A DNA stretch of 31,596 bases from a virus. Its lineage: Duplodnaviria > Caudoviricetes. Positions 11,541 to 31,596 of this stretch are shown here, piece after piece. A model generated the notes under the pieces. The model saw nothing but the letters and a program-made list of their open reading frames with translations. It was not told where the DNA came from and did not search any database. The stretch spans positions 1 through 31,596 of the IMG/VR virus record IMGVR_UViG_3300046778_000118. The stretch is one strand, 5' to 3'. Positions within the stretch are counted from its first letter, which is position 1; the number at the start of each line of letters is the position of its first letter. Made by a program: the position numbers and the translations under genes.

Positions 11541-11549
11541 TATTTTAAG

Positions 11550-12203: not shown

Positions 12204-12252
12204 CTAAAATTCACCCCTATTTATAATTTGTATATGTATATAACATTCATTC

Positions 12253-12949: not shown

Positions 12950-12953
12950 ATTA

Positions 12954-13673: not shown

Positions 13674-13679
13674 ATTTAC

Positions 13680-15014: not shown

Positions 15015-15018
15015 ACTT

Positions 15019-15732: not shown

Positions 15733-15956
15733 TATATTATCGATTCTATGTTTAAAAATGCTTGGGACAAACTCTTTGCATCTCTATGGTCTAAATATAG
15801 TGCAAAAGAAGATGTCTGAGTATACACAGTAAGCATAACTTTTATTGTAGATGTATAAACATGGTACGTAAGAAACGTACCATGTTTAATTTGCTGAGAA
15901 ATAGATTTTACATAATCTTTTTCTTTTATATGTTGAGAGTCTTTATACGTCTTCAA
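15732..15956 (-). CDS. Hypothetical protein (74 aa)
   Basis: Stop/start-coupled ORF. Confidence 0.55.
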   Translation of the reverse strand: MKTYKDSQHIKEKDYVKSISQQIKHGTFLTYHVYTSTIKVMLTVYTQTSSFALYLDHRDAKSLSQAFLNIESII

Positions 15957-16197
15957 TTTTACTATACTGTTCTTTTAGATTAGTTAGAGCATCAATAAGA
16001 TTATCAATGGTTACACTTGTAGGAAGACTTATAAGAGCTGAAAACTTTTTAGTTACTACATCTAATGTAATAAACTCAGAAAAGTTATCTTCTTCATAAG
16101 CTCTAACTAGATTAAAAGATACATTTTTATCCACACTTGAGATGAGTAAGATATTTCTCTCATCTATTAATTCTGTGTCTATATCAACTTGTTTCAT
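15943..16197 (-). CDS. Hypothetical protein (84 aa)
   Basis: Packed ORF with AAGGA upstream. Confidence 0.6.
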   Translation of the reverse strand: MKQVDIDTELIDERNILLISSVDKNVSFNLVRAYEEDNFSEFITLDVVTKKFSALISLPTSVTIDNLIDALTNLKEQYSKIEDV

Positions 16198-16206
16198 TTT
16201 TTTTCC

Positions 16207-16692
16207 TTACGATGTGGATCCAAATCCACCTTGTCTTTGACTTTCTCCACCGTTGTCATCTTCGGTTAGTAAATAAGGGGTGAAAATAACTTGGCCCAAC
16301 TTATCACCCTTTTTAATGACAACATCTTCATGTCCAAAGTTAAGAAGCATGAAAGACAGTTCGCCTTCATTCTTTGCATAATAATAATCAGAATCTACTA
16401 CACCTACATTGTTTGTAAGCATTAAATTCTTTTTTAAAAATAAAGAAGAGCGAGCGTAAACTAATGCGGCTACACCTTCGGGAAATTGAATTCTAATTCC
16501 AGTTCTTATCTTATGGACTACATTAGTTGTCCCTAAAGTCCCATCAAGGTTTACAAATGAAGTAAAAGAGGGAGAAAGAACTTTAGCTTCTCCTGCACAT
16601 AAATCATATCCTGCGGAACCATGTGTGGCTCGACTGGGTAATGGGAAATCTTCTGGACTAAACCCAGTTACATATTCAAACTTAATTGACAT
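16207..16692 (-). CDS. dut: Trimeric dUTPase
   Basis: SAGYDL, ARSS, GVVDSDY, GDKLGQ and RQGGFGST motifs. Confidence 0.95.
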   Translation of the reverse strand: MSIKFEYVTGFSPEDFPLPSRATHGSAGYDLCAGEAKVLSPSFTSFVNLDGTLGTTNVVHKIRTGIRIQFPEGVAALVYARSSLFLKKNLMLTNNVGVVDSDYYYAKNEGELSFMLLNFGHEDVVIKKGDKLGQVIFTPYLLTEDDNGGESQRQGGFGSTS

Positions 16693-17293
16693 TTTTATTA
16701 TTTTTCTTATCGATATTACATTGTTTACAACCTAAGCCATACAAATGATCTTTAGGTGCAATACTAAACTCCCCATGAACAGGGCAAATAATAATTACAG
16801 GTAAACGCATATTTCTGTAATTTGTTTTGGAGTAATCAAACTTTGAATTGTGAAAAGCATTTGCTTTATTTACAAATTCTTCTGGACTTAAACTATTTTT
16901 ATGAATTCTACAATGCTTACATTCTTGTCCTCTTAAATGATTTTGTACGTTTAGATTAAAATCTCCGTGATAGGGGCAAGTCACAGTAAATAGTTTATCT
17001 ATTCCAGTGTATACAGATTTTTCATATGAATACTTATTATTATAAAGTAAATTTGCTTTTCTAATAATTTCTTCCAATTGTAATTTAGGACGACGCTTAT
17101 TTAGACTACACTTCATACACCCACGACCTTTATAATGGTCGTGAGGTGTTTGTAAGAAGTCTCCGTGATATCTACAAGTAATTATAACTTTAGTATATTG
17201 ATTTACATATTTACTTTTAGAGTAATCATAAAAATCATCTTGGAGAAATTTTGCTTTTTCTATAAAATGAGCAGTAGTAGAAGCTACAGGCAT
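16682..17293 (-). CDS. Three-repeat zinc-ribbon protein (DUF723-like), no nuclease domain evident
   Basis: Three copies of K-A...Y.Y.K..Y......V.I.C..HG.F......H..G..CxxC. Confidence 0.75.
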   Translation of the reverse strand: MPVASTTAHFIEKAKFLQDDFYDYSKSKYVNQYTKVIITCRYHGDFLQTPHDHYKGRGCMKCSLNKRRPKLQLEEIIRKANLLYNNKYSYEKSVYTGIDKLFTVTCPYHGDFNLNVQNHLRGQECKHCRIHKNSLSPEEFVNKANAFHNSKFDYSKTNYRNMRLPVIIICPVHGEFSIAPKDHLYGLGCKQCNIDKKNNKNVN

Positions 17294-17297
17294 TTAA

Positions 17298-17858
17298 TTA
17301 ACCTTCTTTTCTAGGTCTACCTTTAGCCACAGGTTTTTCTGTTGAGCTAGGTTTCTCTGCACGTACATATAATGAAAAAGCTTTATGCTGGAGGTTGTGC
17401 ATATCTTGATGCTCTTCACGTTGAATATTTACAAATCCAAGTTCTTGAAGTGTCCAAGCTAAAGACGCAAAACAATAAGCATACTTGTGTCTCATATAAA
17501 TATTTGGTTCTCGGTGATCGCCACCAAAGAAATGATTTGCATCTTTCCAAAAGTAGTTATTAACACTTTCCCAGCTATTTTTTAATTGACAATCTGCAAA
17601 CTTATCATAGTCAGGTACAGCTATATGTAAAACACCGCCAGGTTCTAACAAGGAAAAGCATTTAGTCAAAAATGCTTTTCCATCTTCTCTAGTAAAATGC
17701 TCTAAAATATGACTTGCTAAAATCTCATCCGACTGAGGAAGAGGACGCCAATTATCACTAGTCAAATCTATAATTACATCAGCATTTTCAATATCAACTG
17801 TCAACCAACCAAGCATTATTCTGTCTGGATAATTTTGACAACCTAAATTTAATTTCAA
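17298..17858 (-). CDS. Class I SAM-dependent methyltransferase of the type found in glycan loci
   Basis: KLNLGC, ILASHILEHF and LEPGGVLHIAVPD. Confidence 0.85.
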   Translation of the reverse strand: MKLNLGCQNYPDRIMLGWLTVDIENADVIIDLTSDNWRPLPQSDEILASHILEHFTREDGKAFLTKCFSLLEPGGVLHIAVPDYDKFADCQLKNSWESVNNYFWKDANHFFGGDHREPNIYMRHKYAYCFASLAWTLQELGFVNIQREEHQDMHNLQHKAFSLYVRAEKPSSTEKPVAKGRPRKEG

Positions 17859-18130
17859 TCTAATTCTCTTTCTTTAGACACTAAATTTGAATCAATTTCA
17901 TTAAACTTTTGTAAGAAAAGTTTAGTTCCGATTAGATCTTCTTTAAATGTATGTTCAAAATCTAAGCGTATATTAATACTTAAATAATATCTTTTTAGTT
18001 CCAAATATTCATCTATACCAAAAGACTTATGTTCTTCAGGAGTTAATTCATACTCACATCTATCAAGCTGACCTAGTTTAATTTTAATTCCACGTTTAAT
18101 GGAATTCATTGTGGGAATATTACCAATCAT
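17855..18130 (-). CDS. Hypothetical protein (91 aa)
   Basis: Overlap-coupled ORF. Confidence 0.55.
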   Translation of the reverse strand: MIGNIPTMNSIKRGIKIKLGQLDRCEYELTPEEHKSFGIDEYLELKRYYLSINIRLDFEHTFKEDLIGTKLFLQKFNEIDSNLVSKERELD

Positions 18131-18560
18131 AATGACATCCTTTTATATTCTTTTCAAGTAAATGCTCTTTTAGTGCAATCATTCTTTCAACAGTCATAAA
18201 ATCATGTGCAATGTCATCATGATCTTCTATTGAGCCTTCATAATATATTCCATCTATAGCAACATTATCTTCTTCAAAATACTCAATATGTGCCACAAAA
18301 TCTACTGTTTCATTTCTATTTGCATATGCAAAGAAAAAATGCTTGTATTTTTCAGGAATGTCTAACCCTGGAAAACTATAAATAAACAAAGCTAAATCAC
18401 CAACATCTGTTTTAGAAAAAATATTCCATTTTTCGTTTAAAGGGATAGATTTATCTGTACAAAACTTTTTAACTTTAGAATAAAAATTATTTTTATATTC
18501 ATTAAATGATTTTAAATCTTCTAAAACATCTTCGGTAGTAACATAATCGCCTGTATGCAT
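18120..18560 (-). CDS. Hypothetical acidic protein (146 aa)
   Basis: Packed ORF. Confidence 0.6.
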   Translation of the reverse strand: MHTGDYVTTEDVLEDLKSFNEYKNNFYSKVKKFCTDKSIPLNEKWNIFSKTDVGDLALFIYSFPGLDIPEKYKHFFFAYANRNETVDFVAHIEYFEEDNVAIDGIYYEGSIEDHDDIAHDFMTVERMIALKEHLLEKNIKGCHYDW

Positions 18561-18593
18561 ACTTAACCAACTCTTTCGTGCATATAAACTTAT

Positions 18594-19394
18594 CTATTGC
18601 CATGCAATTTTATGTCTAAATGCAACTACTTTATTATTATATCTGGTGGTATATCCATCATTATCAATAGTTACTCCAGGATATAAACCAAAGTGAGCAT
18701 GGGTATGGAAACTGAGAGGTAGGATACGCTCTGTAAACTCAGAATCTTTTTGAATTAGCCAACTCATTAACCATTGTGCATTAGGATAAACAATAAATTC
18801 ACCTTCTTTTTTCCACAAAGTAATAAACTTTTCAGCTAAAGTACGCCAAGTTGCCACAGTAGCAATACAACATCCTGTGTTATAACACCTTGGAATGATA
18901 TTATCAGGCCACCATTCTCTTGTAAATGCAAACATATCCTGCTTACATATCAATCTACTAGCTTCAGCCCAAATAGAATCTGTTTCACTAGCATTAAAAT
19001 TAACTCCAAAGTCCCCATACTTAAAAGATTTAATATAATTAAGCTCTTCATCACTAAAAGGACGCTGTAAAATTACATCTCCATCAATAAAAATGATAAT
19101 ATCGTCATCTGCAAGAAACCCATTAGGGTATGCAGCTAAAAAATCACCATACTGAGGACTTTTATGCTGATTTAAACATCGAATTGATGACAAATTCAAA
19201 AAATTTGTCATAAATCGTGTAGAATTTGTGTTTAAAAAACTTTGTGGGGCCGTTGGAGCAAAAACATCAAACCCTGTAGACAAAAAATCTAGTTTAATTT
19301 CAGGATTTGCATTTTCATTAAGGTGGAGTAAGCATTTTTGAACATTATGAAAGTAATTTTGGTCGGAAGAAAGAGAAATTCGTATGTTTGCCAT
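18594..19394 (-). CDS. GT-A fold glycosyltransferase-like protein (non-GT2 type)
   Basis: IIIFIDGDVILQRP (DxD motif) and CYNTGCC resembling the NxG motif of GT8-like enzymes. Confidence 0.6.
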   Translation of the reverse strand: MANIRISLSSDQNYFHNVQKCLLHLNENANPEIKLDFLSTGFDVFAPTAPQSFLNTNSTRFMTNFLNLSSIRCLNQHKSPQYGDFLAAYPNGFLADDDIIIFIDGDVILQRPFSDEELNYIKSFKYGDFGVNFNASETDSIWAEASRLICKQDMFAFTREWWPDNIIPRCYNTGCCIATVATWRTLAEKFITLWKKEGEFIVYPNAQWLMSWLIQKDSEFTERILPLSFHTHAHFGLYPGVTIDNDGYTTRYNNKVVAFRHKIAWQ

Positions 19395-19395
19395 A

Positions 19396-19953
19396 TTAAA
19401 CCTCTAATTTAGGTAATACAGATGCAAAATTTAATGCCATATCAGAAGGAAAAAGCTCTTCTAAAGTATATTTCTCCCAAAAATAACAGGGCTGAGAGTG
19501 TGTTTCGGGATAAGTTACCTTACTTCTATATACTTTAGCTAAAGTTTTATAAACTTCTGTTTCTTTTGGTTCCCAGTCGGGTCTTTCAATATAAATGATT
19601 CTTCCAACACGTGCATTGATAGCTGCTTTAAGGCACTCAGAGCAGGGTTTGTGTGTACAATAGAGCATTGTGCCTTTAGTGTCAAAAGGAGCATTAAGAA
19701 TTGCGTTTACTTCTGCATGAACAACGTAATCGTATTTATGATCAGGAGACCAAAGCTCCGGAGGCTCGGGAATTCCTGCTGGAAATCCATTATAGCCTAC
19801 AGATAATTGGCGAGTGTCTGGAGTTACAAGACATGCACCAACTTTTGTTCTAGGATCTTTAGACATAGAAACAGAAGTCATCCATGCTAAACGTAAATAG
19901 TGTACATCATATTTTTTTACTGATGACATAGTTAAACTTTCTTTAGGAGACAC
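19396..19953 (-). CDS. dCMP deaminase
   Basis: SKDPRTKVGA, GYNGFP, HAEVNAI and PCSEC zinc motifs. Confidence 0.92.
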   Translation of the reverse strand: MSPKESLTMSSVKKYDVHYLRLAWMTSVSMSKDPRTKVGACLVTPDTRQLSVGYNGFPAGIPEPPELWSPDHKYDYVVHAEVNAILNAPFDTKGTMLYCTHKPCSECLKAAINARVGRIIYIERPDWEPKETEVYKTLAKVYRSKVTYPETHSQPCYFWEKYTLEELFPSDMALNFASVLPKLEV

Positions 19954-19980
19954 CTATAAAAGGTGTCTCCTAATATATAT

Positions 19981-20679
19981 TTATTTTACGGTAGTTGTTT
20001 TTACTTCTACAGTAGTAGTTGTTTTAACTGGAGGAGTGGCTACTTTATCTTCGATGGGTGCAAAAGCCATTTTAGAATTTGTGGTTCTATATGTTGCAAC
20101 TCCAGCGCTAAGACTTGCCCCCATACCACGAATACTTCCCTTATCACTAGTGTCATAAGCCATAGTATTTGCGGCTAGTACACCCATTCCACTTCCTTCA
20201 GCAAAAACATCGAAGTTTGCTCCAATGAAGGAGAAATCCCAATCTTTTTCTGCAGTAAGTAGCTTAATACGCTCACCAATTTTTGCTTTAGTAGAAGTTT
20301 TACTTGCATTATTAGCACCGTCTGTTAAAGTTACAAAAAGAACTTTGTCAGGACGATCATTTGGGTTTAAAGTATTAAAGAAGTTAATAGCATTGTCAAT
20401 TGTACGATCCATAGAATCATACAAAGCTGTACTACCACGAGGAACAAACTTCTCTGTTGGAAATTCTAACTCAGAATTAAATGTAGTCCACGGAATCAAA
20501 ACATCATATTCAGTATCAAACTGAGCCATGAAGAAAAGATCGTTATTTCCAGCTAACTTTTTCTGATCAGAAATAAAAGTTTGTAACCCACCCACAATAT
20601 CTTCTTTAATAGATTGCATAGATCCAGATCTATCAAGAAGAATTACAATAGCCGCACGTTTATGATTAATATTATTCAT
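19981..20679 (-). CDS. von Willebrand factor A domain protein
   Basis: MIDAS LLDRSGSM, PRGSTALYD, LTDG and FIGAN; Thr-rich C-terminal tail. Confidence 0.9.
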   Translation of the reverse strand: MNNINHKRAAIVILLDRSGSMQSIKEDIVGGLQTFISDQKKLAGNNDLFFMAQFDTEYDVLIPWTTFNSELEFPTEKFVPRGSTALYDSMDRTIDNAINFFNTLNPNDRPDKVLFVTLTDGANNASKTSTKAKIGERIKLLTAEKDWDFSFIGANFDVFAEGSGMGVLAANTMAYDTSDKGSIRGMGASLSAGVATYRTTNSKMAFAPIEDKVATPPVKTTTTVEVKTTTVK

Positions 20680-20691
20680 TATTTTTTCTTT

Positions 20692-20997
20692 CTACTGAGG
20701 AATTTTCTCAGTAAGGATAGCTCTTGCTTTTGAAGATGCTTCCTCTAATTCTTTTATACTTAGACCACCAATATACTCAGACTCTCCAGTAACTAAATCA
20801 TAAAGAATTAGTCCAAAAGAGTAGGAATCTAAAGGTGGTCTATCTGTAGCATTTAAGTATAGATAATAAACACAAGGAGAGAGATTTAATTCTAAAGAAT
20901 AAAAAGTCTCTCCTATACAAATCATATTTAAACTCATTGTATTTTTAGGTAAATTATTTTTGCGGTTTTCCATTAATGAGTTAATGTCTATACTCAT
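20692..20997 (-). CDS. Hypothetical protein (101 aa)
   Basis: Overlap-coupled ORF. Confidence 0.55.
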   Translation of the reverse strand: MSIDINSLMENRKNNLPKNTMSLNMICIGETFYSLELNLSPCVYYLYLNATDRPPLDSYSFGLILYDLVTGESEYIGGLSIKELEEASSKARAILTEKIPQ

Positions 20998-21233
20998 TTT
21001 AGTTTTTCTGCAAGTTCTAGAATTGCTGCTTTACTAATAACACCAATTTCATGAATTATTCCTAATTCATTTATATCTACCAGTGCATAATACTGAGAAG
21101 CAATCGAAGATGTTTCTTCTTTTAAATCCATTCGACTTACAGTATCAACAGACACATCAAAAAAAACATTTTCTGTATCTATAATACATAGACTTTTATA
21201 TCTATCTTTCATTGTAGCCATAATATTTTTCAT
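20994..21233 (-). CDS. Hypothetical protein (79 aa)
   Basis: GAGGAG upstream; overlap-coupled. Confidence 0.6.
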   Translation of the reverse strand: MKNIMATMKDRYKSLCIIDTENVFFDVSVDTVSRMDLKEETSSIASQYYALVDINELGIIHEIGVISKAAILELAEKLK

Positions 21234-22092
21234 ACTCCTCAGGATACTTAGACTTAACCCAATCCTCTAATGTTAACGAAGTTTTCAAGAAAGTTGCCTC
21301 ACCTTTGTATTCATCTTCAATAGCACCAATTGAAGGCTTACTCCAATGCCATCCTTCTAATTCCATAATATACCCTTTAGTAGATATACTAGGGGAACTT
21401 CGTAATGACCAGTCTGCATCCTCAGAGCCAAACACAGCACCTGCATTCATTGCCCTGTAGGAGCCTCCACAAGCCTCAAATACGGCTTGTGGAACACAAT
21501 GGCAATAACCTGCCACACCGTCATAATGATAAATGGTAGCCTCCGAAATTCTATACTCAGATAATAAAAGTTCTCTATTCAACGAAGGAAATAAAGTATC
21601 TGACTTTATCTTTTCTCCGACTGTATCAGATAAATCTAATTTAGAGATAAGCTGAGGAGATGCTCCTTGAGAATAGTATTGCATTCCTTTAGGAGTTTCT
21701 TTTTTTACTGAGGGTGAGAGCAATCTATATTGAGGATATTTCTGGAATATCCTCAATATAGTAGAATCCCAAAGTGGAGGCACACCATAATCATGATCCA
21801 ACTTAACTACCATGTCATAAGACATAGCCATTGCACGAGATAAAGATTTATTAGTGCATTCTAAAGCAGTTACACGCTCAGGTAAACTGATGATGGTAAA
21901 GATAGCATTCTCAGCTAACTTATTTCCCCACTCTTTTTGAATAGTTTCTCTAACTACCCCTAAAGTATTATCTTTAGACCCATTGTCACAAATTACCAAA
22001 TGAAAGTTTGTTTCTGTATGGCGAATTAAACTTGTAATTACTTGACCAATTAAAGGCTCAATATTACATACAGGTAAACCAACATAAATCAT
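21202..22092 (-). CDS. GT2 family glycosyltransferase
   Basis: LPVCN, ICDNGSKDNT, VVKLDHD and FGSEDADWSLR. Confidence 0.88.
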   Translation of the reverse strand: MIYVGLPVCNIEPLIGQVITSLIRHTETNFHLVICDNGSKDNTLGVVRETIQKEWGNKLAENAIFTIISLPERVTALECTNKSLSRAMAMSYDMVVKLDHDYGVPPLWDSTILRIFQKYPQYRLLSPSVKKETPKGMQYYSQGASPQLISKLDLSDTVGEKIKSDTLFPSLNRELLLSEYRISEATIYHYDGVAGYCHCVPQAVFEACGGSYRAMNAGAVFGSEDADWSLRSSPSISTKGYIMELEGWHWSKPSIGAIEDEYKGEATFLKTSLTLEDWVKSKYPEEYEKYYGYNER

Positions 22093-22106
22093 ATTAACAA
22101 ACCTTT

Positions 22107-22493
22107 CTAAATATCAGATACAAAACTATATCGATTATATAAAGTAGAACGACCAATTGTTTTGGGCATACCAAATCCATTAGTATCGTATAAATCATTG
22201 TATAACCAATATGTTGCACCCAACATAGTTTCTGAATGAGGGACATCCACACAATCTTCAGATGAAGAAAAACACCCCAATGATATAGATGTTACATAAT
22301 TTATAGACTCAGATTCAAAAGGAACACACTGACTGCTTACATAAATTATACGAGGATGATACCGAGAGAAATCAACAACTCTACTCAAAAACCACATCAA
22401 TGAAGATCTATCCGTAGAAACCGAGGGAGAGAACTTAGACAAAGGATTTGAACTGAGTAACGATTTGTAATACTCATTATATTCAATTGACAT
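22107..22493 (-). CDS. Hypothetical protein (128 aa)
   Basis: Stop/start-coupled ORF. Confidence 0.55.
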   Translation of the reverse strand: MSIEYNEYYKSLLSSNPLSKFSPSVSTDRSSLMWFLSRVVDFSRYHPRIIYVSSQCVPFESESINYVTSISLGCFSSSEDCVDVPHSETMLGATYWLYNDLYDTNGFGMPKTIGRSTLYNRYSFVSDI

Positions 22494-22861
22494 TAACCAC
22501 TCTCACTTACACCCAATATACCTACACCATTTTCCTTATTTAATACACCGTTAGATTTTAAAACATCTTTTACGGCAATAAAAAAGGAATAGTACTCACT
22601 ATCGGATAAATATAAAACATGATTATCTTGATATTTATCAAGTATTCTTTTAAATTTATCTAATTCACGAGAATTAACTAGAGATAATTTGTAAGCCGTA
22701 GATAAATATCTACCTCGGGCAGAAAAGAACAACCTATAAAGAAAACTACGAGATAAATAATCTACATAGGCTGACTTTATAGACGTATCAAAAGGCTCAT
22801 TAACACTTACAACAGTATTAATTGCATATAGCATTTCACTTTTACTTATAGGTATTAACAT
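22493..22861 (-). CDS. Hypothetical protein (122 aa)
   Basis: Overlap-coupled ORF. Confidence 0.55.
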   Translation of the reverse strand: MLIPISKSEMLYAINTVVSVNEPFDTSIKSAYVDYLSRSFLYRLFFSARGRYLSTAYKLSLVNSRELDKFKRILDKYQDNHVLYLSDSEYYSFFIAVKDVLKSNGVLNKENGVGILGVSESG

Positions 22862-23673
22862 TCTAAACCTGTTTTAGGATCAAAGTATAAAGGCTTTTCA
22901 CCACGTTGAATTAAACTTTTTTCTAACATATAAATCCTATTATATTGTAAAGCTTCAGATTTCATGTCAGCTAAATAGTCTTGGTAGTTGGGGCAATCAA
23001 GATGTTCTCCTTCAATTCTAATTGGATCGACGTACCAATCTAGTGTTGAACGTAATAGCCCCGACTTCTTTAGTCGTAAACCATAATGAACATCATGGAA
23101 TCCCCAGTTTTGTGGGAAGGATACACAATCATATCCGCCCAGTACTTCAGCTACTTCTCGGTTAATTACATTTGTAGTTCCCCACCATTCTTCATACATG
23201 TCAAGGATGACAGACGATCCTGTAGAAGGTACAAATTTGCTATGACCATGACAATGCTCTTTATGGGGTTGAATCATGTATGCTTTTAAAGATGGAGCAC
23301 GATCTGCTAAATCTTTAATTTTAGTAATCCAGCTAGTATCTTTAAACCATTGATCACAATCTGACATTACTAAACGATTATACTTTGGCATTTTTTGAAA
23401 CTGGAGAATGGCTTGGTTTCTACCTTTTGCCCAACCAACTTGGGGCAAATTATATATCATAGAAACATTTTCATTCTCTAAATTAAATTTATCAAGTCTT
23501 GCTACAATAGAAGGATCATCACCTTCTTCACTACCGTTAAAAACAAAAAGAACATCCAGTAATCCTGGATGTTCTTTTAATGCCAACTCCACACAATCTA
23601 AATGCTTATGAATAACCAAAGCACGATCAGACTGAGAAGCTGGACTCCAAATTAAACTAGAAAACAATATCAT
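22855..23673 (-). CDS. GT-A fold glycosyltransferase (GT2-like), paralog of 14232..15014
   Basis: WAKGRN, MSDCD and LGGYD...WGFHDVHYGLR. Confidence 0.8.
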   Translation of the reverse strand: MILFSSLIWSPASQSDRALVIHKHLDCVELALKEHPGLLDVLFVFNGSEEGDDPSIVARLDKFNLENENVSMIYNLPQVGWAKGRNQAILQFQKMPKYNRLVMSDCDQWFKDTSWITKIKDLADRAPSLKAYMIQPHKEHCHGHSKFVPSTGSSVILDMYEEWWGTTNVINREVAEVLGGYDCVSFPQNWGFHDVHYGLRLKKSGLLRSTLDWYVDPIRIEGEHLDCPNYQDYLADMKSEALQYNRIYMLEKSLIQRGEKPLYFDPKTGLEC

Positions 23674-24033
23674 TTATTTTTTGGCTTTCTTATTTTTCTT
23701 TCTCTTTTTCGACGAAGAAACTTCCTTGCTTGAATGTATCTCATAATTATCACCCTCATCCTCAGAATCTTTTTCACCAACTAATACATGACCTGTAAAA
23801 GTCGATAACGGAGCTTTAATAGAAACATAAGACGTATGGGGCAAATACTTTGAACCATTTTTTAATTCGTAATCCTCACGAAGCGAAGAAGATTGTTCGC
23901 CAAGTACACGAAGCAAATCTTCATTTGTTGAACAATGGAGAGTATGCTTGATTTCACCATATTCATCCAATATACATAATACCCAACCACTTTCAGTTAG
24001 ACTGATAGCAAAACTTATAGGCAACCCTAACAT
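23674..24033 (-). CDS. Hypothetical protein with a basic C-terminal tail
   Basis: GGGAG upstream; ends KKRKKNKKAKK. Confidence 0.6.
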   Translation of the reverse strand: MLGLPISFAISLTESGWVLCILDEYGEIKHTLHCSTNEDLLRVLGEQSSSLREDYELKNGSKYLPHTSYVSIKAPLSTFTGHVLVGEKDSEDEGDNYEIHSSKEVSSSKKRKKNKKAKK

Positions 24034-24037
24034 AACG

Positions 24038-24550
24038 TTATCTCCCAGCTACACTACCCTTGGTGGCATAATTAAAAAAACAACGGCGAACATCAATCAC
24101 CACAACCCCAATTCCAGAATAATAACCCCTAAAAGAAGCTAAACTCTTACTAAACCAATCCTGTAAACTACCGGAAACCAAATAAGTTAACTCCTCAACA
24201 ATATAATTAACATTATTGGAAGGTATCCTCTCCACCAAATACATATGCACAATGGAAGGATAACATATAATACGAATCGTTGCACCCATATCAATTATAT
24301 TAGAAATTACCTCACTCTTTAACCAACGCTTACGACAATAGCGAGCAACTCTTACCTGAACAGGAGTAATCTCACTACCACCATATCCCACATATGAAGA
24401 ACTAACCTTATCACCCAATAAGTCCTCACCATCAGAAGTACCCGTAGAAGACTCCACAAACCCCATAGACGAACGATCTACCGAATCTGACGTATTCATA
24501 CGAGTCTCATTAATTAAAGACTTATTACGACGATGCTTCCTACTAGACAT
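24038..24550 (-). CDS. Hypothetical protein (170 aa), first gene of the leftward arm
   Basis: ATG preceded by AGGT, with a basic N-terminus. Confidence 0.55.
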   Translation of the reverse strand: MSSRKHRRNKSLINETRMNTSDSVDRSSMGFVESSTGTSDGEDLLGDKVSSSYVGYGGSEITPVQVRVARYCRKRWLKSEVISNIIDMGATIRIICYPSIVHMYLVERIPSNNVNYIVEELTYLVSGSLQDWFSKSLASFRGYYSGIGVVVIDVRRCFFNYATKGSVAGR

Positions 24551-24601
24551 AGTTTACCTGCCTATTGCTTAACACTGCTTTCAACAATATTAAGTCTGCA
24601 C

Positions 24602-24637
24602 AGAAAACTATATTTCCTATAAAAAATATAGTTTTCT
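24602..24637. repeat. 14-bp perfect inverted repeat
   Basis: AGAAAACTATATTT (24602-24615) pairs with AAATATAGTTTTCT (24624-24637). Confidence 0.85.
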
Positions 24638-24711
24638 ATTTTTTATTAAGACACACAAGATAGAGGGCCATACCCTTTTATATAAACCCCCACCCCAATT
24701 TATTAAGTATT

Positions 24712-24768
24712 TTTTTGGAGAGAGGAGAGAGGTAAAAAGATAGAAATTTTTGGAGAGAGGAGAGAGGT
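24712..24768. repeat. 22-bp purine-rich direct repeat, two copies
   Basis: TTTTTGGAGAGAGGAGAGAGGT at 24712-24733 and 24747-24768 (35-bp period). Confidence 0.9.
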
Positions 24769-24980
24769 CTCAGTATACCCATGTTAAAGAAACTACCTGG
24801 GGGTATGTTTTTAGTGGAGGCCGGTACAGCGTGTACCGCAACCTTTCTAACATCTAGCCTTACACTTGTTCATGATCTTGCGGACAGGATCAAACTCAAA
24901 TGTTCATGTGTAATGAGACGATGCTAACTGGGTTACTTGGTCAAGCTTCCTAAGCTTGTCCTATTCAAAAGGAAACTACT

Positions 24981-25574
24981 ATGTCAACTAACAACACCAA
25001 CTCTACGTCTACCAACAACAACGACACCAAGGATAAACAAATGTTCACTATCAACAACATTACTATTGGGGAATTCGTCACCCCTACAATCGTCAAGGTC
25101 ACCAACATCAGTGTGGAATCTGCCTCTGCAGTCGAGACCTACCTCAACACCAACACCAATGCTGAACTGTTCACTCGCAAGGATGGCGTGAAGTTCATCC
25201 GTGTCAAGTGTACTGAGAGCATGTTCGTGTTCTTGTTCCAGATCGCCAAAGATTGGGGATTCCAGGCAATCGCCAAGTATGTCTGGTCTGCAATCGTCGA
25301 AGGTTGCAAGGAAGGCTGGAAGGTTGTGGTTAACTTCTTCAATACTCTTCCTGAGACGGCTAAAGCCAAGTGGGCTGAGTTTGTTTACATCTGCAACAAC
25401 TTGGGTAATGTGAGCTTGGCTGACTGGATGAAGGTCATTGCTAACATTATCATCACTGTGGCATGTGCCGCTATTGTGATTGCTTACCCTACGCTTGCCG
25501 TTACTTTACTGGTGACTGGTTGGGCATGTGGTCTCTGGAACTACTTGTCTGTGTTTGTTCACAACAACAGCTAA
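24981..25574 (+). CDS. Hypothetical membrane protein, first gene of the rightward arm
   Basis: AAGGA SD, Asn/Thr-rich N-terminus and two C-terminal hydrophobic helices. Confidence 0.75.
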   Translation: MSTNNTNSTSTNNNDTKDKQMFTINNITIGEFVTPTIVKVTNISVESASAVETYLNTNTNAELFTRKDGVKFIRVKCTESMFVFLFQIAKDWGFQAIAKYVWSAIVEGCKEGWKVVVNFFNTLPETAKAKWAEFVYICNNLGNVSLADWMKVIANIIITVACAAIVIAYPTLAVTLLVTGWACGLWNYLSVFVHNNS

Positions 25575-25586
25575 TACTTAAGTAAA

Positions 25587-25623
25587 ATATAGGAACAATA
25601 CCTTAATGGTATTGTTCCTATAT
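25587..25623. other. 16-bp perfect hairpin immediately 5' of hammerhead 1
   Basis: ATATAGGAACAATACC - TTAAT - GGTATTGTTCCTATAT. Confidence 0.8.
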
Positions 25624-25680
25624 AGAGTCGTAAGCTCTCATGCTTACCTGATGATGGCCTAATTGAGGGCCGAAACTCTA
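25623..25680 (+). ncRNA. Type III hammerhead ribozyme 1
   Basis: Stem III UAGAG/CUCUA, GUC site (cleavage 3' of C25629), stem I GUAAGC/GCUUAC, CUGAUGA (25648-25654), an extra U, stem II GGCC/GGCC, and GAAA (25672-25675). Confidence 0.92.
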
Positions 25681-25703
25681 ACTCATCAGTGAAAGTCACA
25701 ACA

Positions 25704-26018
25704 ATGAACACTACTATCTATGTCACCCTCTCCACCACCATTTCTACTGTCAATGCTTTGCACATGCGTGTGCTGGGGGAAACAACTACCACTAGTACCC
25801 TGACCTTCTCGGAGGCGATTAATTCCCTCAATGCATTACAGTCTGCTACAATGGATGCGTTTCACTTCGAAGGTGGGGACAACTTTATCAATCCTGTTTA
25901 TGTCTTCTCCAAGGAGATGGGCGATGTAAAGGAGATTGTTCGCCAGGATATGCTCATCACTTGGGAAACAATTTCTGATGATGAGAATGCTCTAATCATT
26001 GGAGTGTTCTCTAAGTAA
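25704..26018 (+). CDS. Hypothetical protein (104 aa) downstream of hammerhead 1
   Basis: Track ORF 25689..26018; ATG 25704 is the likelier start. Confidence 0.65.
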   Translation: MNTTIYVTLSTTISTVNALHMRVLGETTTTSTLTFSEAINSLNALQSATMDAFHFEGGDNFINPVYVFSKEMGDVKEIVRQDMLITWETISDDENALIIGVFSK

Positions 26019-26025
26019 TTGTTAT

Positions 26026-26073
26026 AAGCTGGGGAATGAGTTGTCAAAACCTTGTAATCCATTCTCCAGTTTT
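26026..26073 (+). repeat. Repeated stem-loop, copy A (terminator- or RNase III-like)
   Basis: AAGCTGGGGAATG...CATTCTCCAGTTT, followed by T's. Confidence 0.75.
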
Positions 26074-26106
26074 CTGTTTATGTCACTAAAGAAAGAATCT
26101 ACTAAA

Positions 26107-26391
26107 ATGAAACAACTAATCTCTACACTTCAAATCAACAACAATATTGTTACCTTCATTAATGAGGGTAATCTAGTTTTAGGGTCCTTTTGGGGCCTGG
26201 AGTACCCTAACTTCTGGAAGTTGGTTACTATTGAGGGAGATCTTGTAACAATAACATTTCCCTCCAGTATTACATATATCTGGCATACTGAGTATAATAT
26301 CACTCTCCGCACTGAGAATATTTACTTTACTATCCGGAGAAATATAACACTAGAAGGGATTGAGTGGATACCTGGAGCCCAAGTAAAATAA
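26107..26391 (+). CDS. Hypothetical protein (94 aa)
   Basis: Likely start is ATG 26107 (MKQLIST), since the track's upstream extension runs through the hairpin. Confidence 0.6.
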   Translation: MKQLISTLQINNNIVTFINEGNLVLGSFWGLEYPNFWKLVTIEGDLVTITFPSSITYIWHTEYNITLRTENIYFTIRRNITLEGIEWIPGAQVK

Positions 26392-26404
26392 TATTTAAGT
26401 AATA

Positions 26405-26432
26405 TGGAAGGACACGCACATGTGTCCTTCCA
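26405..26432. other. 11-bp hairpin
   Basis: TGGAAGGACAC pairs with GTGTCCTTCCA. Confidence 0.75.
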
Positions 26433-26459
26433 CTCTCTATTCCAAAGAAAAATAATCAA

Positions 26460-26588
26460 ATGAAAATCACTGTCACAATTTCCCGCAAGTCAACTCCTGT
26501 TCTAACTTTGTCTGTTCCTCTAGACAAGGCAGATGAAATTATTCAGATGGCTCTAAGCTATGGATTGGAGTATCATATCTGGGAATAA
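26460..26588 (+). CDS. 42-aa small protein MKITVTISRKSTPVLTLSVPLDKADEIIQMALSYGLEYHIWE
   Basis: Not in the track. It fills the space between two hairpins and has an A-rich leader. Confidence 0.6.
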   Translation: MKITVTISRKSTPVLTLSVPLDKADEIIQMALSYGLEYHIWE

Positions 26589-26602
26589 ACTAAATAAATA
26601 AG

Positions 26603-26650
26603 AAGCTGGGGAATGGATCTTGAACATATTAAAATCCATTCTCCAGTTTC
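26603..26650 (+). repeat. Repeated stem-loop, copy B
   Basis: AAGCTGGGGAATGGAT...ATCCATTCTCCAGTTT: same arms as copy A with a different loop. Confidence 0.75.
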
Positions 26651-26667
26651 TTTGAAAGTATTATATC

Positions 26668-26729
26668 AATAGAGTCGTAGGTCACTCAACCTACCTGATG
26701 ATGGCTAAATCGAAAGCCGAAACTCTATT
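26668..26729 (+). ncRNA. Type III hammerhead ribozyme 2
   Basis: Stem III AAUAGAG/CUCUAUU, GUC site (cleavage 3' of C26676), stem I GUAGGU/ACCUAC, CUGAUGA (26695-26701), an extra U, stem II GGCU/AGCC, and GAAA (26719-26722). Stems covary with hammerhead 1. Confidence 0.93.
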
Positions 26730-26749
26730 CATCAGAAGGAACAACAACT

Positions 26750-26917
26750 ATGTCACTTCAGACTGCAACCACGATCATGCTGATCGCTCTCTACTTTGTG
26801 TTCGGTGTTCTTGTAACCATCGCAACAGTTTTTGAACTGTTGCAAATCAAGACTGGACGGGCTCTACTCTTGGCCGGTCTTATGGTCTTGGGTTACCTGC
26901 TGGCGTCTATCAACTAA
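26750..26917 (+). CDS. 55-aa two-TM membrane protein
   Basis: Not in the track. AAGGA SD; MSLQTATTIMLIALYFVFGVLVTIATVFELLQIKTGRALLLAGLMVLGYLLASIN. Confidence 0.7.
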   Translation: MSLQTATTIMLIALYFVFGVLVTIATVFELLQIKTGRALLLAGLMVLGYLLASIN

Positions 26918-26943
26918 TCTCTGCTTGTAAAGAAAGAAAAACT

Positions 26944-27288
26944 ATGTCAACTTTTGTCAATATCAACTCTGTCGTCACTCCTTTCCTAATGGGAAGTTTC
27001 TGCTTTGGAATCAACGGAAATATGGTGGATCCATTTTCAGATGATCTTCCAACCCTTACTGAAGGAGATAAGGTAGAAATCATGGTTCTTGCATTTGAGT
27101 GCTGTCTATCACTTTCTAGAATCTGGTCTCAATCTTTTCATGTTGCTACTTTCACATATACTCCGGGAATGACCTTCCTGGATGTATGTTTGAAAATAGC
27201 AAGTAAAGAAGGGAGCTTTCACACTAATTCAAATTTGCTTGAAAAAGCTAAGTTTGATTTGGAAATGGATCCTTTTAATGAAGACTAA
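26944..27288 (+). CDS. Hypothetical protein (114 aa)
   Basis: Co-oriented ORF with the shared ACTATGTCA start context. Confidence 0.65.
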   Translation: MSTFVNINSVVTPFLMGSFCFGINGNMVDPFSDDLPTLTEGDKVEIMVLAFECCLSLSRIWSQSFHVATFTYTPGMTFLDVCLKIASKEGSFHTNSNLLEKAKFDLEMDPFNED

Positions 27289-27373
27289 GGTTTTCATACT
27301 CACTATCTCTTTTTCTTACTCAAGTAAGAAATCTGTCCACGTCACTGTTTGTCTGTTTGGAAAGTAAATAACT

Positions 27374-30300
27374 ATGTCACAAAATATGTTCGCTTTAAAC
27401 ATCGTCTCTACTCCTGTAACTGGAGTACTCAACACCACACCGGCTTTGTCCGAGTATGTGGCGGCTTGCTTGGAGCATGTCTGGTCTACCACTCTGGAGG
27501 CGGATGGTACTCTTGAGTCGTGTGCTAAGGTTGTCATGGGCAAAATGCACCCCGATAACCAAGCCTACGACTCCTTCCAGAAGTTCGAGACCTTTGTGAA
27601 GAAGAACACCTTTGGGCGCTTCTTCTTCAAAGGTATCTATGCTGTTGGCACCTTGGCTGATTACCAGGCTGCTAAGCAGTATATTCAGAATGAGGACCCG
27701 TCTTACACTGATCTGGAAGCTCACAAACTTACTATTATGGCATTGACTCTAGGTACCATCCTGGATCAACGCTATGCTGGTGAGAAGATGTGGGTACCAG
27801 TTGGCGGTACTCGGGTCTACTTTACAGTTCCTAACCTTCTGTCTCCTATGAAGATGAAGAAGTTGCTGTACAAGACCACTGAAGGCTCTGAAATGCCTTT
27901 AGTGGGCTTTCGTGTTAGCAATGCCTTCTTAAATAAGTTGACGGAGGAGGCTACTACTGCTAACAAGAAGTATGTAGACTTTGGTCAGGCTCGCTATGCT
28001 GATCAGTTCCGCCAGCTGCATCACAAGAATATTGTGAGTTTGTTTACGGAGTCGATTCTCAAGCGTGAGAGTGGTGAGCTGGGCCTTATGTGGGCTTGGA
28101 CTCACTTCTCTAATCTTCAGATCGGCGAAGTAGGCTACGATGTTACTGTGGCTGAGGAATGGGTTAAGAAACTTCTTCAGAGCGGTGTCCGTAAGGGCTA
28201 CCTGAACAAGTCCCAGGCTAAGGCTATTGGGCGTACGTTCAAGAATTACCCTGGTATCCTTAATGGTAGCCAGATTCTTGGTCTTCGTCACCCAGTTACC
28301 TCAGCTAATGGTGCTGACAATCTGACTATTCGGGTTGTTAATGCACATAGCCGAATGGTTGGAGTCTCAGCTGAGACTGCCAAAGCCATGCTGGGTGACT
28401 TTGACCATGACTTGTTCATGGGTACTTACTTCTCAGGATCGGACTTCCAGATTGCAGATGAGAAATCTGCAATCAAGTTGTTGATTGAGAATGCCCACAA
28501 GGTATCTCTTGGTCATACTGAGGGGTTTGAGGTTATTGAGGCACACAAGCCTCTTGCACCTTTTACCAATCAACTGACGCTACAGTCCGTCTATTGGGTC
28601 AACAACTGGGATGATGAGGTAGGGACACCTGGTGGTTCTACAGCTTTTTCCACCATTCTTGGTGGTGAGTCTAAGGCTTCTGTGGGTCTGTTCAAGAATA
28701 GATTCTACTGGGGTTGTGAGACCATTCTGATGACCCAAGCCACTGATCAGCAGATTGTTGATCTGGCTATCGTTGTCACCAATAGCAAGTTTGTTGATGA
28801 ATTCAACAAACTTGCTGTTGCAAAAGCACTGGAGGTGTTTCTAGCAAATCAGGTTAAAGAGACGTTAGCGGCTCTTGTCATCAAAGTAATTTACGCTTCG
28901 TATTACGGAGTAGAAGAGAAGTTGATGGATGCAGCTAAACGTAAGCTTAGCATTGGTGCTGATGGTGTTATCCGTGTCACTAAGGAGAATCAGGGCTTTG
29001 ATCCTGAGGCTCTTGTTCAGGCTACCATTTCTGGTGGTGGTCTTGACTGGGATGCACTATCTACTGAGCTTGAAGTTGCTCCTCTTAAATTGATTGTAGC
29101 CTTGAGCTACGGTCGGTTTGAAGGTGCTGATGACCCCTTTATGGCCGCTATGAATTCCTTCTATCGCTTCTCTCTCATTGAGAAGAGAAACTGGATGGAG
29201 AAGGGTTGTTATGTTAAGGACGTTCGTCGTGAGGCTTATGAGCTTTCTGAGGTACTTGTATCTCAAGACATGCAGTCTTACGTGGATGCCTTGACTCACT
29301 TCCCTTACATTGGAAACATGTGGCCTTCAGAGTATCAAACTCTGGAGGGGGCTATTCAGCGTATTGAGGAGTTCTTCCTCACCGTGCCTTCAATCGATGT
29401 GTATCAGAAAGAAAGTCTGATGGATTTTGCATGCAATGAGTCTCCTCTGCAGTATGCAACATTTCAAGATTTTAATCTCAATACCATTGCTGAGTTTGAG
29501 TACAAGATGGATAAGACTTGTACTCTTGTAGTTAATGTCACTGTAGGAGGTGTTGTTCGTCAGGCTGTAGTAGACACCTATAAGGCAGTCTATTTGGATT
29601 CCAATAAGAGTATGGTTGATGCTTATGGGCGTCAATCTGCACACTCTTGGAGTCGTCTGGACTCCAAGAATGACGCTATCTATTTCTTTGGGCCTCGTGT
29701 CCAAGCAATGGAGCTTTCACCTGTGGGAGCTAAGCGTTCGTTAACTCCTCAATTGGAGCCTGGGACTCGTAAAGATCCGATGCCTTACAACCCAGCTTCC
29801 CCTATTACTTTAAAGCTTGTTGATATGCCTTTGTGGCTGAGTCAAGAAGCTCAGGTAATCTGGGATAAGGTTTACCGTGAAGGTGGACGATCTGAAGCTG
29901 ATACGAAAGTGGAGAAAGCACTTTCTGCAATTGAGTTCAGACTACGGGAGATTCTACAGAAACTCCCCAACATCAAGAAAGACTCTGAGCACCTTGAGAC
30001 ATCTCAGGATGGTACTTCTGCCAAATCGCAGAAATACTCCCTCAAGAGTGTTCCTATTTCTTTCTTGTCTGAGTTTGTGTGGATTCATCTGCCTAAGCTC
30101 ACAAATGCGGATTATGAGATTGCTGTTCGTCGTCACATGTGGGCGACACTTGAGCGTATTGGATATGATCTTCGCCTTACTTCCCACGCATTGCGTGGGG
30201 ATAAAGTGGGCGTACAACGTGGGGATTCTGATTTCCTACGTGATTGTGTTCCATTCGGCCAAGTCAGCAATCGCAATCGCCAGTCTAAGCTTGTTTCTAC

Positions 30301-31596
30301 TATGGAGCGGCATATTCTGGTTAATAATCCAATTCGTGAGTTTACTGCTCGGATTGATCTGAATGCAATTCAGTCGGGTACGTGTACTCAGTTGAATGTG
30401 ATGTATGTCACATCCAACATGTTTGGACCACAAGCTGGGATTGAGCCCTGTGATGAAACTCATCGTACTATCGCTGGTACTTATGCTCTTATGAGCAGTC
30501 GTACTGCATGGCGTGTAGTTACTGAAGAGGAGTATATTGCATTCTGTGAGGAGTATAAAGCAAACTTGGACTTGCTTGCTTTGGTCGATGCCAAAGCAAG
30601 ATATGTCTTTGTTCATGACAACCTGGAGGAGCGACAGTGGTTTCTTCCTGAAAATGTACAAGAGCTAACAACTCAATACAAGAAGCTGGTGTATAACATC
30701 AGAGGTGGTTCTGTAAACACTCACTTGAATGTAGACTATGTGGCAACCTATCATCCAGTTTCTTCCCTAGAAGATCTGACTGATGATAACTCTAAGGTTG
30801 TTCACATTATTGATAGTGCAAATGCACTGGCTAAGAAAGGAGCCTTTAACATCATTCTCGAATTGGTTTACTCTCAGTTGTCCCTGGAGGGTCGTGCTAA
30901 GTTGGATGCACTAGTGCATTATAACTTCTGTACTTCTCGACAGTTGATCTCACATAAGAGATCTGAAGCTGCTTTCCGTGCATCTAAGGGTGCTGGGGAT
31001 GCTGTTTCAATTAACCAGTTCACTGGTGAGGACTCTGACTATGTAAGCCTACTAGAGCAAGCACTCTTGGCTGAAGGCAAGAGTGCTACGGGTGAGATGT
31101 ATATCTACCAAAAAGTAGATGGACAACTCATTCCGGTGTTGCTGGAGGATGGTACACAGTATAAGTGTCTTGTTGGTGCTGTCACAACTTTCCAAGCTAA
31201 CTATGATGGTGAGCAGGGATCCTACAATATCATTTCTCAAAGTGGTGTTAGTATGGATCCTCATATTCGCACTATGTGTGGTGCGGGTATTAAGCTCACT
31301 GAGAAAGAGCTGGATCTTTGGGATATGGTCCAACTCAATACTCTCAGCTTCTCCACTCCCAACGATAATGGCAATGGCATGATTCGTTGGATCGGAAATA
31401 AACCTAATGCGTCTATAGATGCGAAACGGGAAGCACTTACTGCAAAGTATATTGCTCGACGTACTTCACGTCTTATGATTCAAGAGGATAAAGCTGTGGT
31501 TGCGGAATTGGTTCAGCAGTTTAATGAAGTTGTAACTTCTCAAGCCGCTGAACTCGTTTTCCCTGATGAACTAAACCTCTGGAACGAGGAGCAGGA
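27374..31596 (+). CDS. Giant single-chain two-barrel (DPBB) RNA polymerase-like protein, beta'-like half first and beta-like half second; 3'-truncated by the window edge
   Basis: Not in the track because it has no stop codon in the window. Hand translation is open for 1407 codons. Beta'-like motifs: FTESILKR...LQIGEVG, LRHP (R305), GDFDHD (D342-D346). Beta-like motifs: CVPF..NR..MERH (~958), [10 protein letters not shown] (~1103-1110), [12 protein letters not shown] (~1144), TGEMYIY...CLVG (~1240). Confidence 0.8.
   Translation, partial: [1407 protein letters not shown]

Follow-up and report, generated by a model that had tools for sequence, protein, structure and literature searches.

A candidate single-chain phage RNA polymerase with its beta-prime-type half ahead of its beta-type half

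Two-barrel RNA polymerases and the phage gene

Several described RNA polymerases carry two double-psi barrels in one polypeptide, including crAss-like gp66, P23-45 gp64/gp96, QDE-1 and YonO, and all of these except QDE-1 are phage-encoded. In gp66, gp64/gp96 and QDE-1 the beta-type barrel (DPBB-B) precedes the beta-prime-type barrel (DPBB-A), to which it is joined via a connector, and DPBB-B stands before DPBB-A in YonO as well. The same order is implied for YonO in PMC2919709, and the fusions described there, yeast-plasmid Orf6 and NCgl1702, run from beta to beta-prime. The multisubunit enzymes of AR9 and phiKZ (7S00/7S01 and 7OGP) are made of four or five polypeptides, and PMC7598289 places a split of beta-prime right after DPBB-A in jumbo-phage and cyanobacterial RNA polymerases. 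Uncultured tailed phages also encode cell-type polymerases, the two separate mReC subunits having been found with COG0085/COG0086 profiles (PMC7481178).

The 31,596-nucleotide viral record analysed here in its entirety (the window) contains at its right end a gene whose product, to judge from structural models, is very probably a single-chain DNA-dependent two-barrel RNA polymerase of a phage with the beta-prime-type half first, and a reverse fusion of split multisubunit-type pieces is its likely origin. As in gp66, gp64/gp96 and YonO, both barrels are in one phage-encoded polypeptide, and as in gp66 the DxDxD loop has a non-glycine fourth residue, but the barrel order of gp66, gp64/gp96 and QDE-1 is reversed. 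A preliminary description of this DNA had stated that described single-chain and fused enzymes place the beta-type barrel first, and this holds for gp66, gp64/gp96, QDE-1, Orf6 and NCgl1702. The literature, searched mostly outside subscription papers, yielded no paper describing a beta-prime-then-beta order, and no described family with this architecture was found there or in Pfam, PHROGs or PDB sequences.

The gene (27374..31594, plus strand) starts at the ATG at 27374 and contains no stops in 1,407 codons, as had been reported, and the five other frames over this interval have 29-145 stops each. The 1,407 aa reading frame runs off the contig with its 3' end open. Because the alignment with P0002, a relative of 67% identity, ends at residue 1388, after which P0002 has 43 more residues and this protein 19, the chain is probably truncated by a few tens of residues. 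The longest contig of public run X1, from which the record may derive, stops one base past the window end, so the gene cannot be extended there, and run X3 contains short pieces only.

The record is 21% complete by CheckV and is that of a tailed phage as judged from the predicted portal (625-2076, minus strand; PHROGs E 5e-28) and terminase large subunit (3306-4931, minus strand; PHROGs E 3.5e-36). Five small genes with no function assigned (24981..27288, plus strand) lie upstream of the polymerase and likely form one early block with it; GC3 is 0.32-0.62 in this plus-strand block versus 0.13-0.30 on the minus strand. The block also contains two type III hammerhead-ribozyme-like elements, neither with a hammerhead match in Rfam. 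The first (25623..25680, plus strand) has stems with 5/5, 6/6 and 4/4 positions paired and an extra U before stem II, and the second (26670..26727, plus strand; repeat family D2) has compensatory changes relative to it in both stem I and stem II. Sigma-70-like sites upstream number 11, compared with 6.7 +/- 2.3 in shuffled sequences, which is not informative, and inspection by eye of the sequences preceding 32 minus-strand genes revealed no conspicuous phage promoter motif.

Sequence searches and the predicted structures of the two halves

The polymerase chain has no match in Pfam (best E 0.14), PHROGs or PDB sequences, and no Pfam polymerase family matched any of 12 family members, a point of difference from the mReC subunits; families such as PF05183 and those of PHROGs are too divergent for a blank result to exclude membership. 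No match was found by tblastn of 50,697 phage records or in IMG/VR scans (with the polymerase and also the terminase) and metagenome scans, and a word-indexed protein search gave 0 of 7,994 candidates and, in a second round, 2 of 8,000, both already-known relatives. There is no detectable sequence similarity to the AR9/phiKZ polymerases. Comparison of the family by hhalign with single Escherichia coli RpoB and RpoC sequences and a 26-row beta alignment produced no significant result in 11 comparisons (E 0.18-0.62); the front half failed to align to the RpoC barrel, and the back half fell in register with four beta motifs at a non-significant E of 0.18. Atlas rows that have a family assigned show Rpb2_6 and Rpb1_2 at 0.75-0.84, and these are leads only. 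The assignment as a polymerase draws its significance from predicted structure and not from sequence. The models, built from alignments of 12 rows, have intermediate quality (pLDDT 58.8, pTM 0.42 and pLDDT 67.7, pTM 0.58), and a single 1,170-residue model holds both barrels, at ORF residues 234-365 and ~970-1283.

The N-terminal region (residues 1-230; 27374..28063, plus strand) varies in length among the relatives, with only ~115 residues preceding the matching position in P0007. A beta-type barrel N-terminal to residue 220 was sought, and structure comparison of the model gave no barrel match in residues 111-220. The N-terminal region is followed by a beta-prime/Rpb1-type barrel (DPBB-A, residues 231-361; 28064..28456, plus strand) with six predicted strands in model md4b948b324d6. 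Foldseek searches, which the preliminary description had suggested, match both halves to RNA polymerases, the front half as beta-prime and the back half as beta/Rpb2. For the front half the best 50 matches listed are all RNA polymerase entries, led by AR9 nvRNAP (7s01_d, E 8.8e-6) and then by bacterial chains with beta-prime lettering. The best 10 of 48,161 chains in VIA are all Rpb1/beta-prime, with Z scores of 8.4-9.7 that barely exceed those of unrelated double-psi barrels, for example Cdc48-N (8.1); the barrel aligns with 2pmz_A at Z 9.6 and rmsd 2.8 over 97 residues.

Conservation was counted over the nine sequences with the front half (query included) and the ten with the back half, rows lacking that half being left out. 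The three Asp residues of the catalytic loop D342-F-D344-H-D346 (28397..28411, plus strand), which has His and not Gly at its fourth position, are kept in 9/9 sequences. R305-H-P307 (28286..28294, plus strand), where a barrel strand ends, is the predicted equivalent of the beta-prime R-x-P (Rpb1 R446 and P448), with Arg in 8/9 and Pro in 9/9. A helical region with G438-x-x-K441 and M518-D519-x-x-K522 (28661..28948, plus strand) follows, and G438, M518, D519 and K522 are kept in 8/8; we infer that its helices correspond to the bridge helix and trigger helix in a pruned beta-prime C-terminal part, and VIA alignments with C-terminal parts of Rpb1/beta-prime reach model residue 470 (rmsd 3.8-6.7). 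The motifs picked out by eye in the preliminary description lie where it had put them, both early (LRHPV 304-308, GDFDHD 341-346, GLFKN 438-442 and LMDAAK 517-522) and late (PFGQV 960-964, YKKLV 1102-1106, a 10-letter motif at 1147-1156 and EGKSATG 1234-1240). Its comparison of those that follow the catalytic loop with YonO/RdRP-type enzymes is reflected in one weak Atlas lead, in which language-model features of residues 200-560 resemble RdRP-family clusters (0.88, with PF05183 on 25% of members).

The middle of the chain (residues ~600-930, about 330 residues; 29171..30163, plus strand) is poorly conserved, with pLDDT mostly <60 and one high-rmsd structural row only (8qma_A), and may be what is left of the N-terminal lobes of beta. 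Beyond it is a beta/Rpb2-type hybrid-binding region with DPBB-B (residues ~934-1283; 30173..31222, plus strand), and a barrel of this type is predicted at ~1000-1280, where one had been anticipated at around 1000-1160. All 50 Foldseek matches listed for this half are RNA polymerase entries, to chains lettered beta/Rpb2, and the best nine of 48,161 chains in VIA are all beta/Rpb2 at Z 11.5-13.9, including 7ogp_C (12.7) and 7s00_C (11.5), before a fall to 6.5; the superposition with the Rpb2 hybrid-binding region covers 202 residues (Z 14.3, rmsd 3.5). Neither gp66 (6VR4) nor PolD is among the best 50 VIA matches listed for either half, and they may be present further down.

R969, K972, K1104, K1154 and K1155 are kept in 10/10 sequences, residue 1028 is acidic in 10/10 and D1027 is kept in 9/10. 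By position, D1027/E1028 and K1104 are putative counterparts of Rpb2 D837 and K979, and the model has a ~75-residue strand-rich insert between D1027 and K1104 at the position of the flap (SBHM); hhalign gives an alternative register for K1104. The match to the beta GDK...GNKG motifs proposed from the sequence survives for the first lysine and not for the second, for which this protein has no basic residue: the candidate column for the second beta lysine (Rpb2 K987, E. coli beta K1073), 1121, is Arg or Lys in 7/10 sequences but Asp here and in the closest relative. R1110, kept in 8/10, may substitute for it. Candidates are present for seven of the eight invariant catalytic residues. The barrel is followed by a GSY...DPH stretch (31217..31264, plus strand) that hhalign places in register with E. 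coli beta G1249-Y1251 (overall E 0.18), with G1282 kept in 9/10.

Relatives, domain order and predicted packing of the barrels

Eleven relatives were identified at 22-67% identity, and the three Asp, R305, R969, K1104 and K1155 are kept among them. Four of the 11, from four distinct clusters, have both halves in one chain in the order beta-prime-type then beta-type. In L001 the protein is encoded by two adjacent genes (ORFs 2631-4016 and 4018-) separated by one base and cut just after the first barrel, whereas the copy described here is uncut. The corresponding boundary lies at residues 373-376 (28490..28501, plus strand), and P0008 and P0018 end at 372 and P0003 and P0013 begin at 376. The second gene of the split form joins the beta-prime-like C-terminal part to the beta-like part, so the order is the same. 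This resembles AR9 and phiKZ in the site of the split after DPBB-A (PMC7598289), but the family has one or two polypeptides, totalling ~1,140-1,650 residues, with the beta-prime C-terminal part joined ahead of the beta part. The cellular beta-prime/Rpb1 and beta/Rpb2 subunits share the same barrels, DxDxD, R-x-P, acidic pair and basic residues, although here there is one chain of roughly half their summed length in which the second beta lysine is not evident.

When the two halves were folded as separate chains they scored 0.80, compared with 0.00 for the best of three controls; the pass mark is reached by 116 of 157 solved pairs, as against 2 of the 215 mismatched ones. Runs share at least 42% of their contacts, the partner pLDDT is at least 64, and the predicted interface includes the catalytic loop, with 341-345 on one side and 972, 1024-1028 and 1104 on the other. 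The barrels are thus predicted to pack into one active site, with the 0.80 score possibly due to likeness to solved polymerases. The order originally proposed, in which the beta-prime-type barrel comes first and the beta-type region last, is supported by the folds, the predicted packing and the four full-length relatives.

Activity, origin and context of the predicted enzyme

Residue roles carried over from cellular enzymes, some of them given in PMC2919709 and PMC7598289, suggest a two-metal mechanism in which D342/D344/D346 would hold Mg-A with D1027/E1028 near Mg-B. R305 would sit at the 3' end of the RNA, K1104 on its backbone and R969/K1155 on the phosphates of the incoming NTP, and the helices at 430-525 would serve as bridge and trigger elements.

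Of the two origins put forward initially, a reverse fusion fits better than a circular permutation of a YonO/QDE-1-type chain. A permuted YonO/QDE-1/gp66-type enzyme with the same fold and activity would account for the RdRP-like Atlas lead, the compact spacing from the catalytic loop to the M-D-x-x-K helix, which is as in single-chain enzymes, and the alignment of gp96 over 126-454 of model 2 (Z 6.8). We consider it quite unlikely, since both halves are nearer multisubunit enzymes than YonO, QDE-1 and P23-45 types: the back half aligns with ~200 residues of beta/Rpb2 (Z 11.5-14) versus 92-103 of RDR2 and QDE-1 (Z 6.0 and 5.2), the front half ranks Rpb1/beta-prime above gp96 (7.1), gp62 (6.5) and QDE-1 (6.2), and the natural split in L001 is at the jumbo-phage site. 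It is a shade more doubtful that the protein has two barrels but is catalytically impaired, RNA-templated or a PolD-like DNA polymerase. The Asp at the position of the second beta lysine and the His in the catalytic loop are unusual, and the fold does not reveal template or product, but the key residues are kept across relatives as distant as 22% identity and the best structural matches are all DNA-dependent RNA polymerase subunits. An arginine of the R305 type selects ribonucleotides in RNA polymerases.

That the order is an artefact of a chance frame, or of two genes fused by sequencing error, is very improbable. Two-gene relatives exist and the sequence comes from a single source assembly, but the frame is open throughout, four distinct clusters have full-length chains of the same order, the second gene of the split form still spans the junction, and the gene has no differences from the X1 contig, which is possibly the same data. 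A more substantial, although still unlikely, alternative is a real polymerase that is virion-packaged or that belongs to another element joined to the phage by assembly. Depth in run X1 jumps from ~6-11 to 21.9 near 23.8 kb, GC3 differs between the two blocks, and L001 is on a small contig assigned to a bacterial bin, where the four ORFs scanned include no hallmark gene. Against this, a single 7,819-base contig with no joint listed runs from two minus-strand genes of low GC3 across the divergent gap into the polymerase, the gene is located among small non-structural genes, ~22 kb from the head genes, relative P0004 is on a 224,961-base contig, and the doubled depth would also fit a terminal repeat carrying early genes. 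We lean slightly towards early production of a non-virion enzyme from the small plus-strand block; the enzyme would then transcribe the remaining genes of the phage and need no alpha, omega or sigma subunit of the host.

Returning to the fused polymerase, it probably represents an undescribed back-to-front family derived from split jumbo-phage-like pieces, with one-chain and two-subunit states and lacking alpha, omega and sigma, the connector and, in this lineage, the second beta lysine. The described fused or single-chain two-barrel polymerases compared here all have the beta-type barrel first, and models of RNA polymerase origin rely on this order. If the assignment is correct, the two-barrel active site would be independent of chain order, order would be no constraint, and single-chain enzymes would have arisen more than once via fusion of split subunits. 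At ~1,150-1,400 residues the compact enzyme would be useful for structure work and for testing directly which parts of cellular RNA polymerase can be dispensed with. It would also represent a class of phage transcription genes missed by Pfam, PHROGs and PDB sequence searches, and the ancient active site is likely to be one that can be rebuilt from reshuffled pieces.

The open reading frame and its genome

The window is a complete virus record of 31,596 bases, linear and ~21% complete as a genome (CheckV), and its minus-strand genes (portal, terminase large subunit, dUTPase, dCMP deaminase, glycosyltransferases and HNH nucleases) identify it as a tailed phage. A divergent gap lies at ~24.6–25.0 kb, and five small plus-strand genes occupy the space between it and the polymerase frame, which opens at the ATG at 27374 and runs for 1,407 codons to the window end with no stops; the remaining five frames over the same segment contain 29–145. 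Comparison with the relative P0002 (67% identical) suggests that the C-terminus is short by some 25 residues, and the longest public contig ends where the window ends. In public sequencing run X1, from which the record may derive, a single contig of 7,819 bases (depth 21.9) spans 23779 to the window end; it carries two genes of the minus strand together with the divergent gap and the polymerase, with no joint listed. Contigs of the same run over 16–23.6 kb have a depth of ~6–11, about half that of 23779–31596; depth is not copy number, and the step could reflect a terminal repeat carrying the early genes, bias from GC content or a misjoin.

Several other minus-strand genes are of note. The 237-aa product of 15019–15732 is a class II aminoacyl-tRNA-synthetase core domain standing alone (PF00587, E 3.4e-11), with no match to an anticodon-binding domain. 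The region 10446–23673 includes a sugar-modification cluster of UDP-galactopyranose mutase, three glycosyltransferase-like genes and one methyltransferase-like gene, which may modify the virion, the host surface or DNA. Upstream of the terminase block is a stand-alone gene (9201–9968) with a weak N-terminal Hint-domain match below the cut-off (PF07591, E 4.5e-4), and directly preceding the terminase are four small Gly/Ala/Met-rich genes (4936–7097) whose products resemble membrane or ejection proteins; one of them weakly matches a tape-measure family.

Predicted barrels and putative active site

The preliminary description proposed an RNA polymerase with beta-prime and beta parts in that order in one chain. 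Every motif that it quoted is located where it was placed, the frame is confirmed, and the interpretation is supported by the predicted barrels, their predicted packing and the order of the halves in relatives. No relative was found in Pfam, PHROGs, PDB sequences, GenBank phages, IMG/VR or a word-indexed search, and a full phmmer scan with residues 181–1350 against 1.84 billion representatives yielded 11 matches. Four of these are single chains that start with the DFDxD half and end with the other conserved half (P0004, 1,205 aa; P0005, 1,238 aa; P0007, 1,139 aa; P0012, 1,655 aa), three contain only the front half (P0008–P0010), and the remaining four cover later parts alone (P0002, P0003, P0006 and P0011).

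A model of residues 181–1350 from a 12-row alignment (pLDDT 58.8, pTM 0.42) has RNA polymerase entries as all of its best 50 Foldseek matches, in chains lettered beta or Rpb2 (best E 1.9e-5), and most of its named top matches in a viral structure library are viral RNA polymerase subunits. By VIA, residues 934–1283 superpose on the hybrid-binding region of Rpb2 (Z 14.3, rmsd 3.5 over 202 residues), and against 48,161 representatives the top nine are all beta or Rpb2 chains (Z 13.9–11.5), including those of phiKZ (7ogp_C) and AR9 (7s00_C), after which scores fall to 6.5; RDR2 and QDE-1 reach 6.0 and 5.2. In this same structure, beta-prime chains align to residues 234–365. A second model, of residues 111–580 (pLDDT 67.7, pTM 0.58), has six strands at 237–351, and its first Foldseek match is AR9 7s01_d (E 8.8e-6), followed by bacterial and plastid chains lettered beta-prime. 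Its top ten VIA matches are all Rpb1 or beta-prime (Z 9.7–8.4; 2pmz_A at rmsd 2.8 over 97 residues), with unrelated double-psi barrels (Cdc48-N, 8.1), gp96 (7.1), gp62 (6.5) and QDE-1 (6.2) just below. These matches make a barrel fold clear, and what marks it as beta-prime is their ranking together with the DxDxD and R-x-P motifs. Several alignments of this model continue to residue 580 on the C-terminal part of Rpb1 or beta-prime (rmsd 3.8–6.7), and what follows the first barrel would be a cut-down version of the region that holds bridge, trigger and clamp base. The models cover residues 111–1350, with low confidence at ~600–930.

Folded as two chains, residues 205–545 and 930–1320 give a packing score of 0.80 (runs of 0.80, 0.80 and 0.52; best of three controls 0.00), which shows likeness rather than binding, since similar complexes have already been solved; 116 of 157 solved pairs attain the mark for this score, against 2 of 215 mismatched ones. 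Contact agreement between runs is at least 42% and partner pLDDT at least 64, and the predicted interface involves 341–345 on one chain and 972, 1024–1028 and 1104 on the other.

Conservation was counted only over those sequences that contain the half concerned. D342, D344, D346 and P307 are kept in 9/9 and R305 in 8/9; G438, M518, D519 and K522 in 8/8; and R969, K972, K1104, K1154 and K1155 in 10/10, as is an acid at 1028. Eight residues are described as invariant in two-barrel polymerases in PMC2919709, and seven have candidates here: D342, D344, D346, R305, P307, D1027/E1028 and K1104. The eighth residue, K1073 of E. coli beta, has its likely counterpart in column 1121, which is Arg or Lys in 7/10 sequences but Asp in the polymerase and P0002; R1110 (8/10) might take its place. 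An hhalign comparison of the back half with 26 beta sequences (312 columns, E 0.18) sets K1155 on R1106 and GSY on G1249–Y1251, and brings a 12-residue segment onto the beta stretch named in the preliminary description. It also sets K1104 on beta R1059 and not K1065, a register that is tentative; the pairing of R969 with beta R678 comes from an ungapped alignment compared by eye only.

Split forms and the origin of the reversed order

Among 199 candidate stretches, a scan of genome contigs found one locus, L001, encoding the family as two genes. The front-half gene (2631–4016, 461 residues) is followed one base later by a second (4018–5981, matching P0006) in which a beta-prime-C-like part is fused in front of the beta-like part, and the split maps to polymerase residue 373–376, directly after the first barrel. 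Judging from equal contig sizes, P0018 and P0003 share a 7,099-base contig, and P0008 and P0013 one of 7,839 bases; P0008 and P0018 stop at residue 372 and P0003 and P0013 start at 376, and a second lineage thus probably carries the same split.

A break after DPBB-A is common to the virion and non-virion enzymes of jumbo phages and to cyanobacterial RNA polymerase, according to PMC7598289, and the polymerase differs from the jumbo-phage enzymes in its subunits, being one chain where they have a core of four or five. The described single-chain families gp64, gp96, gp66 and QDE-1 differ from it in order, their connector running from DPBB-B to DPBB-A (bioRxiv 10.1101/2022.12.01.518664, PMC10770324 and 10.1101/2020.03.07.982082); Orf6 and NCgl1702 are described as fusions of beta then beta-prime (PMC2919709). 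The reversed form is absent from the accessible text of PMC7824862, PMC7281927, PMC13282480, PMC11348598, PMC5467207 and PMC7481178, and a literature search whose scope stopped short of subscription papers and the 23-family alignments of Chaban et al., which may affect novelty, found no description of it.

Both a reverse fusion and a circular permutation of a YonO/QDE-1-type chain had been put forward as origins. Permutation has a single weak lead in an Atlas comparison and is the less likely, since the best-ranked matches of each half are chains of multisubunit enzymes and the family is split where the jumbo-phage enzymes are. The fusion proposal stands as the likelier, and split pieces would have been joined in the order N-beta-prime, C-beta-prime, beta.

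Upstream RNA elements and a probable role of the polymerase

Two plus-strand elements resembling type III hammerhead ribozymes (25623–25680 and 26670–26727) occupy intergenic positions among the small genes that precede the polymerase, and match the hammerhead core in a type III layout. Their stems are fully paired and differ from copy to copy by compensatory changes, and an additional U precedes stem II; these elements are the only two matches to the pattern on either strand of the window. Rfam calls no hammerhead at either. They would cleave the early transcript into pieces, and hammerhead clusters flanking prophage genes are described in PMC3088659. A perfect 16-pair hairpin (25587–25623) immediately precedes the first element, and a strong hairpin is repeated at 26026–26072 and 26603–26649, each copy after a small gene (z -4.4 and -8.5). 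The divergent gap contains a 14-base perfect inverted repeat (24602–24637) and a perfect 22-base direct repeat (24712–24733 and 24747–24768, 35 bases apart), possibly promoter, origin or genome-end signals.

On its predicted folds, the polymerase falls within the two-barrel superfamily; it would work like a cell-type polymerase and carry out two-metal RNA synthesis on a DNA template. It is encoded on the strand opposite to all genes outside the small plus-strand block, where GC3 is 0.32–0.62 versus 0.13–0.30 elsewhere, and far from the head genes. For these reasons we lean towards a non-virion enzyme that would be made early and then transcribe the remaining phage genome.
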